Shown here: positions 24,891 to 27,117 of the stretch, one piece after another | Position numbering within the stretch: position 1 is the first letter of the stretch | Layout: the number at the start of each line of letters is the position of its first letter | Assembly: GCA_944358725.1 (NCBI GenBank) | Contig: CALVRS010000059.1 | Span: forward strand, 1 to 47,713 | Direction: 5' to 3' | Origin: an uncultured Bacilli bacterium | GTDB taxonomy: Bacteria > Bacillota_I > Bacilli_A > RF39 > UBA660 | DNA: 47,713 nucleotides | Program-made: the position numbers and the translations under genes | Notes under the pieces: generated by a model | What the model saw: the letters and a program-made list of their open reading frames with translations, nothing else | The model's database searches: none | What the model was told of the DNA's origin: nothing

Positions 24891-26076
24891 ATGTTATATT
24901 GTGCCTGTTCAAAAGGCTTGTAATTGTGATTGCATTTTTTGTATATCAAAGTCAAGAGATTATGATAAGGAAGATGAATTTTTAAAAGTGGATGATGAGT
25001 TTATAGAAAATATTAAGTTATTAAAAAGACGAGGAATTAAAAAAATTGAAATAACTGGTGGTGGTGAGCCTATGCTTCATCCAAATATTGAATTAATAGT
25101 AAGTATTATAAAGGAAATTATTTCTGATTGTTATATAAAGATATATACAAATGGTTTTATATTAAAGAAAGTTGAGGGAATTGATGAGGTTAATATTTCG
25201 CTAGTTAGTGATAATGATAGAGTAAATGATTATTTTATGAATCCAAAAAGTAATGTTTCATTTGCTGAAAGGATTGGCTATTATAGAGAAAGTTATCCAT
25301 TATCTAAACTTCGTCTTTCGATACCTTTGATGAAAGGAGGAATTGATAGTTTAGATAAGTTAAATGATTTAATTAATAGTACTTCTTGCTTTGTGGATGA
25401 ATATGTAGTAAGAACTTTATATCCACATTCATTAGTATATGAAAAGGATTATGTAGAATTTCCAATAGATAATGATAAGGTTATATATGAAAAAGATAAT
25501 GATGTTAGTGATTTTGATGGTTTAATATTATGGAGTGATAATCAATTTTATAAAGATTTTAATTTGAATTTAAAAAGATATTTATATGGGTATTTATTAT
25601 TGAAGCCTGATTCAGCAATTTATATAAATGAAATTGAGGAAATTATTAGAAAATTTGGTTTAGATGTTGTAAAAAAATATTTGATAAAAAATTTTGATGA
25701 AGTGGCTTTAGAATTTTATCAAGAGAAAGATGATGATTATAAGAAAGTTATTCAAAATCATGTTGATAATTTAGTATATTTATTTGGTAATGATGCTTTG
25801 ATTTATATTTTGGATGGTAATTATTGTTATCAAAAATTATTGGAAAAAGTTTATGATTTAAAGTTAGAAATTAGGAGGCAGTTAGGTTTTACGGAGAAGA
25901 AGCATGGCTATATTTTAAAAGATGGCAATATTTCGCATTTAAATTTATGTCATTGCCCTGATGCTATAAGTACTTTTTTTGAGCGTGATTTATCTAATAT
26001 TGATAGTTTTGATAAGACTTTACTTAGTGAAAATAATCAAAAGATTTTAAGAAAATATAGGAGTTATCATTTATGA
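24880..26076 (+). CDS. radical-SAM domain fused to a nucleoside-diphosphate-kinase-like domain
   Basis: GTG start overlaps the upstream stop. C14-x3-C18-x2-C21 ('CNCDCIFC') and 'ITGGGEPMLHP'. The C-terminal half (aa ~235-375) carries 'LLLKPD', 'EIIRKFGLDVV', 'ALEFYQEK', 'LEIRRQLG' and 'NLCHCPD' in NDK order, including the phospho-His position (H358). Confidence 0.7.
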   Translation: MLNKCYIVPVQKACNCDCIFCISKSRDYDKEDEFLKVDDEFIENIKLLKRRGIKKIEITGGGEPMLHPNIELIVSIIKEIISDCYIKIYTNGFILKKVEGIDEVNISLVSDNDRVNDYFMNPKSNVSFAERIGYYRESYPLSKLRLSIPLMKGGIDSLDKLNDLINSTSCFVDEYVVRTLYPHSLVYEKDYVEFPIDNDKVIYEKDNDVSDFDGLILWSDNQFYKDFNLNLKRYLYGYLLLKPDSAIYINEIEEIIRKFGLDVVKKYLIKNFDEVALEFYQEKDDDYKKVIQNHVDNLVYLFGNDALIYILDGNYCYQKLLEKVYDLKLEIRRQLGFTEKKHGYILKDGNISHLNLCHCPDAISTFFERDLSNIDSFDKTLLSENNQKILRKYRSYHL

Positions 26077-26618
26077 TATTATCGGGAAATAAGATAAAAG
26101 AGGAAGTAGAAAATGGCAATATAAATATTGAACCATTTTATGAGGATATGTTAAATCCTAATAGTTATAATTATCATTTGGGAGATACTATTTTAGAAAT
26201 AGAGGATGATGTAATAGATCCTTATGTTAAATGTAAGGTAAAGGAAGTGAAACTAACGGAAGATGGATATTTAATTAGACCAAATAAGTTATATTTAGCA
26301 AGTACTAAGGAGAAAATAGGTAGTAAGAAGTATGTTACGCAGTTAATTGGTCGAAGTTCAGTTGGCCGTCTTGGATTGTTTTTACAGGTTACAGCACCGC
26401 TTGGCCATGTTGGATGTAATCATTGTTGGACGCTTGAACTTAGAGTGGTTATGCCTCTTAGAATTTATCCTAATATGCGAATTGGTCAAGTTACTTTTTG
26501 GAAACTTTATGGCAAGCGTGATTTACTTTATGACAAGGGAAAATATAATAATTATTTGATTCCTCAAGTTAGTATGTTTTATGAAGAAGGTGTTTTAGAT
26601 GATATTATCGGGAAATAA
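26073..26618 (+). CDS. dCTP deaminase/dUTPase-fold protein, paralogue 1
   Basis: 'MILSGNKI...IEPF...NPNSYNYHLG' and 'GRSSVGRLGLF'. The catalytic-Glu position is kept ('WTLEL', E122). The 'IDxGFxG' block is replaced by 'GHVGCNHCW'. ATGA overlap with the upstream gene. Confidence 0.8.
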   Translation: MILSGNKIKEEVENGNINIEPFYEDMLNPNSYNYHLGDTILEIEDDVIDPYVKCKVKEVKLTEDGYLIRPNKLYLASTKEKIGSKKYVTQLIGRSSVGRLGLFLQVTAPLGHVGCNHCWTLELRVVMPLRIYPNMRIGQVTFWKLYGKRDLLYDKGKYNNYLIPQVSMFYEEGVLDDIIGK

Positions 26619-27117
26619 GATAAGAAATGAGGTAGAAAATGGTAGAATTGTAATAGAACCGTTTGATAGTAATATGCTGAATCCTAATAGTTATAATTAT
26701 GAACTGGGAGATTATTTAAAGGTATATGAAAGTGATATTCTTGATAGTAAGATTAAAAATAAAACGAGAATAATAAAAATACCGGATGAGGGTATTGTTT
26801 TAATGCCAAACAAATTATATTTGGGTTATACTAAAGAGGTAATTGGGAGTGATTATTTTGTACCTATTATAACTGGCCGAAGTTCTACAGGTCGTCTTGG
26901 GCTCTTTGTTCAAATTACTGCTGATTTGGTTGATATAGGATTTAAGGGAAATTTAACTATTCAATTTTGTGCGACTCAGCCAGTAAGGATATATAAGGGA
27001 ATGAAGATAGGACAGGTGTTTTTTCACAGAGTATATGGTGATGTTACTTTATATTCTGGTAAATATCAAAATTCTATTGGTCCAAGAGAATCGGAGAGTT
27101 GGAGAGATTTTTCATAA
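26599..27117 (+). CDS. dCTP deaminase/dUTPase-fold protein, paralogue 2 (catalytic Glu replaced by Gln)
   Basis: 'GRSSTGRLGLFVQITADLVDIGFKGNLTIQF'. The 'VDIGFKG' block is kept but position 122 is Q. The first 25 nt are identical to the start of paralogue 1. Confidence 0.8.
   Translation: MILSGNKIRNEVENGRIVIEPFDSNMLNPNSYNYELGDYLKVYESDILDSKIKNKTRIIKIPDEGIVLMPNKLYLGYTKEVIGSDYFVPIITGRSSTGRLGLFVQITADLVDIGFKGNLTIQFCATQPVRIYKGMKIGQVFFHRVYGDVTLYSGKYQNSIGPRESESWRDFS

Follow-up and report, generated by a model that had tools for sequence, protein, structure and literature searches.

The 47,713-nt contig CALVRS010000059.1 of an uncultured Bacilli bacterium (assembly GCA_944358725.1; this whole stretch of DNA is called the window below) contains two consecutive genes, DCD1 and DCD2, of a pair whose members are both called 'dCTP deaminase' in public annotation. 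This raises the question of what each of two such neighbouring genes contributes. Based on the residues of the two proteins, we propose that they form a sub-functionalised pair in a nucleotide-tailoring operon, in which DCD1 would have a deaminase-type and DCD2 a diphosphatase-type pocket, and in which the two proteins are likely in physical contact. We assign this reading a probability of about 0.5. The genes are located as follows (aa, amino acids):

26073-26618, + strand: DCD1, Dcd-fold protein of 181 aa, deaminase-type pocket as predicted from its residues
26599-27117, + strand: DCD2, Dcd-fold protein of 172 aa, diphosphatase-type pocket as predicted from its residues

The genes are arranged head to tail with an overlap of 20 nt, and their products are 51% identical (BLASTP, E = 7e-56). 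An initial annotation of the window had described a gap-free alignment of the two proteins up to about residue 130, and with BLASTP the first gap appeared only from residue 147.

Fold and catalytic residues of the two proteins

Both proteins clearly belong to the DCD family PF22769 (cut-off 27 bits), with scores of 116 bits for DCD1 and 127.5 bits for DCD2, and both are predicted by AlphaFold2 to adopt the Dcd-type jelly-roll fold, with a mean predicted local distance difference test (pLDDT) score of 88 for DCD1 and 95 for DCD2. The top Foldseek matches of both models were the bifunctional DCD-DUT enzymes of Mycobacterium tuberculosis, B. halodurans, and M. jannaschii, at a template modelling (TM) score of 0.82 for DCD1 and 0.93 for DCD2, and E. 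coli Dcd and the archaeal Dcd-like dUTPases ranked below them. The lid of DCD1 was modelled with lower confidence than the lid of DCD2, and the last ~12 residues of DCD1 were a low-confidence region, with a pLDDT below 55 for the tail that is encoded in the overlap. TIGR02274 (cut-off 92.8 bits) gave 91.8 bits with DCD1 and 114.3 bits with DCD2, although the latter lacks the catalytic Glu. All dUTPase models were missed by DCD2, namely PF00692 (18.3 bits, cut-off 22), TIGR00576 (16.7 bits, cut-off 102.55), and NF002598 (26.4 bits, cut-off 130), and DCD1 had no match to any of these three. Save for Gln122, DCD2 is the more canonical of the two partners.

To compare the active sites, we tallied residue conservation over 84 DCD1 and 82 DCD2 sequences from at least seven phyla, with the register set by HMMER alignment to the DCD-DUT enzymes of M. 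tuberculosis (2qxx), M. jannaschii (1ogh), and B. halodurans (4xjc). The corresponding sequence in the window is GHVGCNHCWTLEL in DCD1 and VDIGFKGNLTIQF in DCD2. The position of M. tuberculosis Asp119 is occupied by His112 in DCD1 and by Asp112 in DCD2, and that of Glu129 by Glu122 in DCD1 and by Gln122 in DCD2. Reciprocal substitutions at the catalytic positions 112 and 122 had been proposed in the initial annotation, and the alignment to solved DCD-DUT enzymes leaves this register unshifted. The pattern itself is borne out at 80-plus loci: DCD1 has Glu122 in 100% of the sequences and, at position 112, His (74%), Gln (20%), or Asn (6%) but never Asp; in DCD2, position 112 is Asp in 99%, and position 122 holds Gln (77%), Met (18%), or His (2%) but never Glu. 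None of the 84 DCD1 and 82 DCD2 sequences combined the motif-III Asp with the deaminase Glu. Ser95 and Arg99 were present in 100% of both families, and DCD1 therefore has, together with Glu122, the complete catalytic set of a dCTP deaminase, which in DCD2 fails at Gln122. We take Ser95, Arg99, and Glu122 of DCD1 to be the equivalents of Ser111, Arg115, and Glu138 of E. coli Dcd, the catalytic roles of which were reportedly described by Johansson in 2005. The motif-III Asp, in turn, activates the water molecule that attacks the alpha-phosphate. It is the hydrolytic residue, and an Asp-to-Asn exchange leaves dUTPase practically inactive (PMC5519681, PMC4827122). The reciprocal pattern is most simply read as a division of labour.

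The families also differ in their C-terminal lids. DCD2 has Lys155 (98%), Tyr156 (98%), and Gln157 (91%), followed by a C-terminus with Asp170 (98%) and Phe171 (93%) that resembles the M. tuberculosis enzyme, whereas the matching lid positions of DCD1 hold Lys in 35%, Tyr in 100%, and Gln in none of the sequences. DCD1 has in addition the near-invariant residues Gln105, His117, and Trp119, which are specific to this family and not found in canonical enzymes. A His/Cys/His/Cys set of possible metal ligands, which the initial annotation had seen in DCD1, did not hold up: only His117 (99%) and mostly His112 (74%) are conserved, while Cys115 is limited to the DCD1 clade linked to radical S-adenosylmethionine (SAM) proteins, with Thr, Ala, or Ser in the others, and Cys118 occurs in 29% of the DCD1 sequences. 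As the four ligands are not jointly conserved, we rejected such a metal site as a feature of the family.

Co-inheritance of the pair and its identical 5' ends

With one genome scanned per species, a relative of DCD1 was encoded at 80 loci, and in all 78 loci in which the contig continued, a DCD2 orthologue followed in the same order. The hosts comprise Bacillota, several Patescibacteria lineages, Chlamydiota, Actinomycetota (including Streptomyces), Alphaproteobacteria, Verrucomicrobiota, and Chloroflexota, and thus at least seven phyla. In a maximum-likelihood tree of the 84 DCD1 sequences, the 82 DCD2 sequences, and three canonical enzymes, DCD1 formed a single clade with a support of 98 in the Shimodaira-Hasegawa-like approximate likelihood ratio test (SH-aLRT), and the minimum number of label changes sufficed for the three groups. 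The pairwise distances within the two families correlated with r = 0.82 (shuffled maximum 0.15), and the mean divergence was equal (0.44 for DCD1 and 0.42 for DCD2), from which it follows that the pair moved and evolved as a unit under similar constraint on both genes, and that neither gene is decaying. As the two genes lie side by side throughout, overlap in most loci, and are inherited together, a functional partnership is very likely, and the strict pairing speaks for a system of two components.

Of 151 genomes of the same order, 9 have the pair, and both same-genus genomes that were searched lack it. An ordinary Dut is encoded elsewhere in the genome of the window, and this separate Dut, together with the rarity of the pair, indicates an accessory and not a housekeeping function. 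Plasmid-borne copies exist in Streptomyces and Rhizobium. In phage records, the pair was not found, and the phages carry only canonical Dcd with ~32% identity. Four loci labelled Muribaculaceae (L010, L011, L019, and L027; 26-29% guanine plus cytosine (GC)) and one labelled Saccharibacteria (L017; 42% GC) have the radical SAM operon of the Bacilli type, which points to mis-binning or recent horizontal transfer. The actinobacterial-type protein P0125 (231 aa), in which DCD1 up to about residue 160 is joined to the C-terminal third of DCD2, is either a deletion-fusion that arose by recombination of the paralogues or an assembly artefact.

Re-reading of the sequence agreed with the initial annotation in that the two genes start with the same 25 nt and that DCD1 ends in seven codons that read the start of DCD2 out of frame, which the coordinates of the 20-nt overlap bear out:

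26073-26097, + strand: 5' end of DCD1, 25 nt identical to 26599-26623, read here as a gene-conversion tract
26599-26623, + strand: 5' end of DCD2, identical to 26073-26097; its part 26599-26618 doubles as the DCD1 tail in another frame

Given the identical residues and the codon usage of the window, the probability that the two copies agree at all seven synonymous codons is 0.0075, and both 5' ends use the same rare codons, among them TCG (4.9%), so that the identity is beyond chance. In the rest of the two genes, the same codon is used at 33 of 68 identical residues. Over 82 DCD1-DCD2 pairs, the median number of identical leading bases was 5, and the following individual values were found:

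Window: 25
L007 (6001-7042), the nearest relative: 50, with 87 of the first 90 nt the same
L014 (1370-2412): 41
L048 (2272-3320), Saccharibacteria: about 116

In the window, both copies have TCG and AAG, and in L007 both have TCA and AAA. Codons that match between the copies but differ between the window and L007 are a signature of concerted evolution by gene conversion after the lineages had split, and we thus read the identical 5' ends as recent local gene conversion and not as a relic of duplication. The long tracts in the independent lineages of L048, L007, and L014 indicate that such conversion recurs within the first 30-40 codons. A 4-nt ATGA overlap of stop and start is the norm (50 of 82 loci), and the 20-nt overlap of the window is one of several arrangements.

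These data also bear on the origin of the pair. The repeated 5' end had been taken in the initial annotation as the mark of a tandem duplication with a preserved junction, and a recent duplication of dcd with copies that are still diverging would indeed account for the 25 identical nucleotides and the out-of-frame overlap. In a variant of this explanation, the copies would be a housekeeping pair of Dcd and a Dut-like protein that serves dTTP synthesis, and both proteins score near or above the TIGR02274 cut-off. However, DCD1 and DCD2 are separate, reciprocal old clades that are common to at least seven phyla, the nucleotide identity outside the 5' tract is 62%, the tract evolves in concert as seen in comparison with L007, and the pair is absent from both searched genomes of the genus and from 142 of the 151 genomes of the order. 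The duplication is therefore ancient and not fresh, and the tree, the distribution, and the concerted 5' tract led us to discard the recent-duplication explanation, which we regard as extremely improbable. The housekeeping variant is unlikely because of the canonical Dut in the genome and the patchy presence of the pair, which moreover sits in specialised operons.

Proposed division of labour and contact between the partners

The proposals that follow on the two activities, the substrate, and the quaternary structure are inferred from the fold, the residue pattern and its conservation, the co-inheritance, and the operon context. DCD1 would deaminate a cytosine nucleoside triphosphate without hydrolysing it, because it retains Ser95, Arg99, and Glu122 and has lost the motif-III Asp. 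DCD2 would convert a uracil-type triphosphate to the monophosphate and diphosphate, because it has kept this Asp and the canonical triphosphate lid, with the deaminase Glu replaced by Gln or Met. If the two proteins were in contact, whether within one mixed trimer or with a DCD1 trimer stacked on a DCD2 trimer, the triphosphate intermediate would be kept from release. Contact is probable because the proteins are co-produced from overlapping frames and their genes travel as a unit, and the fixed order, the divergent lid of DCD1 as opposed to the canonical lid of DCD2, and relatives with mixed domains speak for it as well. For a physical DCD1-DCD2 complex as such, we see about even odds.

In the dUTPase/DCD superfamily, the motif-III hairpin forms the base pocket of one subunit, and the phosphate-binding motif 2 is supplied by the neighbouring subunit. 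Because such active sites are built at subunit interfaces, the initial annotation had taken the complementary losses to suggest an obligate hetero-oligomer or one catalytic and one nucleotide-sensing subunit. Complementation across subunits is not supported, as the positions of Asp112 and Glu122 are on one hairpin of one chain. In the AlphaFold2 model of DCD1, the strands of this hairpin comprise residues 102-107 and 116-125, and positions 112 and 122 are ten residues apart across the loop and the second strand. A heteromer would therefore have two types of pockets and no restored bifunctional site.

A different distribution of motifs was found at locus L095 (3998-5612; G108, same order; likewise G047, G027, G071, and G123), where a 186-aa protein has both Asp and Glu and a degenerate motif 2. 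The next protein, a fusion of 356 aa, combines one degenerate Dcd domain with one that has GRSS..R but carries Gly in place of both catalytic residues. The three L095-type Dcd domains are united in a single chain in P0121 (549 aa) and P0122 (532 aa). The arrangement suggests a natural pseudo-heterotrimer that is linked covalently and has only one, composite site. The fusions of L095, P0121, P0122, P0137, and P0234 belong to sister families, as they reach ~100-130 bits with either profile in comparison to ~280 bits for true DCD1. As the L095, P0121, and P0122 domains keep Asp and Glu together and GRSS..R separately, they support the view that the pocket is formed by one hairpin and that mixed assemblies exist in this clade.

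Such domain arrangements could also be taken to mean that DCD1 and DCD2 form an obligate heteromer with only one type of working site, an explanation that we consider rather unlikely. DCD2 would then be a non-catalytic or nucleotide-sensing subunit that completes the DCD1 pocket across the interface with its motif 2 (GRSS..R), motif 4, and lid, and its own Asp/Gln pocket would bind a uracil or thymine nucleotide as a regulator. The canonical Lys-Tyr-Gln lid is indeed found only in DCD2, with a divergent and less confidently modelled lid in DCD1, but the conservation of the whole lid and of Asp112 in 99% of the DCD2 sequences argues for catalysis rather than mere binding. The fusions P0137, P0234, P0121/P0122, and L095 combine a pocket domain without motif 2 with a pocketless domain that has it, yet these proteins are neither DCD1 nor DCD2, and motif 2 of DCD1 is itself intact. 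That the genes are strictly paired and translationally coupled would agree with such an obligate heteromer, as would the regulation of Dcd enzymes by dTTP binding in the active site (PMC4827122).

Operon context, related clusters, and known systems

In the window, the pair is preceded by the following features:

23568-23596, + strand: sigma-70 promoter with the perfect consensus TTGACA-17-TATAAT, preceding the regulator gene
23614-24285, + strand: NrtR-like Nudix and winged-helix regulator, which is at the operon head in 20 loci
24348-24890, + strand: P-loop protein of 180 aa, kinase cluster upstream of the pair
24880-26076, + strand: radical SAM protein of 398 aa with the motif CNCDCIFC, the stop of which overlaps the DCD1 start (ATGA)

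Overlaps of stops and starts chain the four genes of the P-loop protein, the radical SAM protein, DCD1, and DCD2. Members of the kinase cluster of the P-loop protein are encoded directly upstream of the pair in 33 loci, and a chlamydial member is above the threshold of the Pfam family DNMK (T4-type deoxynucleoside monophosphate (dNMP) kinase). The core of the radical SAM protein is about equally near to viperin and MoaA, both of which act on nucleoside triphosphates, and the matches in the Protein Data Bank (PDB) tie at ~2e-6. The prokaryotic viperin model NF038283 was missed, with 34.8 bits over residues 11-97 only and a cut-off of 180. The C-terminal ~170 aa have a weak likeness to nucleoside diphosphate kinase (NDK), with a sub-threshold Pfam match (E = 0.061, 13.6 bits), and a fusion of radical SAM and NDK domains can be suggested tentatively. 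PADLOC returned generic prokaryotic viperin (pVip) matches at 1e-10 for the N-terminus of the radical SAM protein and no match for DCD1, DCD2, or the kinase. As the DCD proteins had no PADLOC match and no close phage homologues, a known defence system was dismissed. The same operon was found in metagenome contigs of Bacilli and Clostridia, where it usually closes with a His_Phos_1 phosphatase; a histidine phosphatase gene follows DCD2 in L007 (7027-7599) and in 14 other loci. In the window, a convergent XRE-family gene abuts DCD2.

In this operon, DCD1 and DCD2 would carry out the last step, after the dNMP-kinase-like protein and the viperin/MoaA-like radical SAM protein, and the operon would most likely turn a cytidine nucleotide, perhaps modified by the radical SAM protein, into a modified uridine nucleotide or nucleoside. 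A bolder form of this proposal, which we hold to be possible but doubtful, is that the pair is an obligate mixed oligomer with two different types of active sites, in which a CTP modified by the radical SAM protein (a viperin-like product) is channelled from deamination to the release of diphosphate, and that it is the signature of a large, so far undescribed class of operons for uridine-type nucleotide or nucleoside analogues. If so, the pair would be a signature enzyme for antimetabolite, antiviral, or aminoacyl-nucleotide antibiotic operons in many phyla, and the operon of the window would represent a new radical-SAM-dependent branch.

Judged by the gene content of the other loci, the pair is the constant core of otherwise variable, putative nucleotide-tailoring clusters, in which kinases, phosphatases, radical SAM proteins, TauD, methyltransferases, and aminoacyl-tRNA synthetase-like enzymes are the variable partners. 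In Patescibacteria and other small-genome metagenome-assembled genomes (L065, L059, L018, L092, and about 10-18 further loci), the partners are an S66 (MccF-like) peptidase, a 364-aa alanyl-tRNA synthetase (AlaRS)-like catalytic domain, and a SAM methyltransferase, in some loci also with a GT4 glycosyltransferase, and this arrangement is reminiscent of a cluster for an aminoacyl-nucleotide antibiotic that includes an immunity gene. Three Paenibacillus loci have ATP-grasp and metallophosphoesterase genes instead. In Streptomyces (L090, 5425-15187), the pair is accompanied by an Erm/KsgA-type methyltransferase, a metallophosphoesterase-like protein, TauD, PIG-L, WbqC, two glycosyltransferases, a prolyl-tRNA synthetase (ProRS)-like protein, and a HIT protein, in what looks like an uncharacterised nucleoside natural-product cluster. 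On a Rhizobium plasmid, it is found with a methyltransferase, a Nudix protein, and a metallophosphoesterase.

It was in principle conceivable that the pair catalyses a new chemistry, for example on another base or sugar, or by an Asp-activated attack on the alpha-phosphate that transfers the nucleotidyl group to an acceptor, as a step towards aminoacylated or otherwise tailored nucleotide antibiotics. The MccF-type S66 peptidase, the AlaRS-like domain, the SAM methyltransferases, the ATP-grasp ligases, the glycosyltransferases, and TauD in other phyla, the occurrence on plasmids of Streptomyces and Rhizobium, and the invariant DCD1 residues that Dcd enzymes do not have would fit such a role. 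Nevertheless, the residues for both classical reactions are all kept and split across the partners, no further feature of the pockets is known that would allow a transfer, and the operon of the window has no gene for an aminoacyl-tRNA synthetase-like enzyme or a ligase. We therefore consider a new chemistry improbable.

Several observations weigh against the reading that we favour. Asn33, Tyr34, Gln105, His117, and Trp119 are invariant and family-specific in DCD1, and together with its divergent lid they may indicate that its substrate or chemistry differs. Although it has kept the motif-III Asp, E. coli Dcd has a single function, and the presence of a residue is thus no strict predictor of activity. 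The two-gene form was absent among the solved structures matched by Foldseek, and in a Rosetta-stone test for a physical complex, no DCD1-DCD2 fusion was among the best matches from 1.84 billion representatives. The phosphatase that ends the operon elsewhere is missing in the window (27117-27572), and no operon-type histidine phosphatase was found in its 68%-complete genome, in which the nearest candidate is 24% identical.

A full-text literature search yielded no account of either the operon or two Dcd-fold proteins that act as a pair, no specific annotation was found, and to our knowledge, the characterised enzymes of the dUTPase superfamily have all been treated as single-gene homo-oligomers. 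The pair could serve as a genome-mining handle, as it marks variable clusters that look built for modified nucleotides. The identity of substrates and products could reveal new nucleotide analogues, and also how such pathways are shared horizontally among small-genome gut Bacilli, Patescibacteria, and Streptomyces.

With viperin (pVip) and nucleotide-kinase modules, the operon of the window has in common that a viperin/MoaA-type radical SAM protein is encoded beside a nucleotide kinase, and with the dCTPase/dNMP-kinase route of phage T4 it has in common that a Dcd/Dut-fold enzyme and a T4-type dNMP kinase would act on pyrimidine nucleotides. Unlike these systems, it is chromosomal, has an NrtR-like regulator, misses the viperin model, and was not found in phages. 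Monofunctional Dcd (E. coli 1xs1; TIGR02274) resembles DCD1 in the Ser-Arg-Glu set and in the predicted deamination without hydrolysis, but the E. coli enzyme has kept the Asp and serves dTTP synthesis as the homotrimer of one gene product, whereas DCD1 is accessory and always paired. In turn, DCD2 resembles the archaeal Dcd-like dUTPases (S. tokodaii 2zdc, Thermococcus 8y1w, P45 9ln0; NF002598) and trimeric Dut (PF00692) in having the hydrolytic Asp with, as its residues suggest, no deaminase function, and it alone of the two partners shows weak matches to these models; however, it scores far under their cut-offs and has the long DCD-DUT lid and no dUTPase motif-V arm.

An engineered human dUTPase, a covalent pseudo-heterotrimer (Szabo et al. 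2016, PMC4827122), and the natural multi-Dcd fusions P0121, P0122, P0137, and P0234 show that the trimeric fold tolerates protomers that differ, and that a site can draw its pocket from one protomer and its phosphate-binding motifs from a second. In the engineered dUTPase and the multi-Dcd fusions, a single chain holds one or a few live sites, whereas DCD1 and DCD2 are made as two chains, and the residue set of each is complete and differently specialised.

Closest to the pair are the bifunctional DCD-DUT enzymes, with which DCD1 and DCD2 share the fold, the length, the best sequence and structure matches, motif 2 (G[RK]SS..R), the motif-III hairpin, and motif 4 (GQ), and the C-terminal lid of DCD2 is the DCD-DUT lid almost residue for residue. 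In contrast to these homotrimers or homohexamers with Asp and Glu in each chain, the two residues are divided here over two obligatorily paired genes, and DCD1 has His, Gln, or Asn at position 112 as well as His117 and Trp119. The pair would thus be a natural two-gene form that spans phyla and represents a clean sub-functionalisation of the bifunctional enzyme, with half of the DCD-DUT chemistry assigned to each partner.

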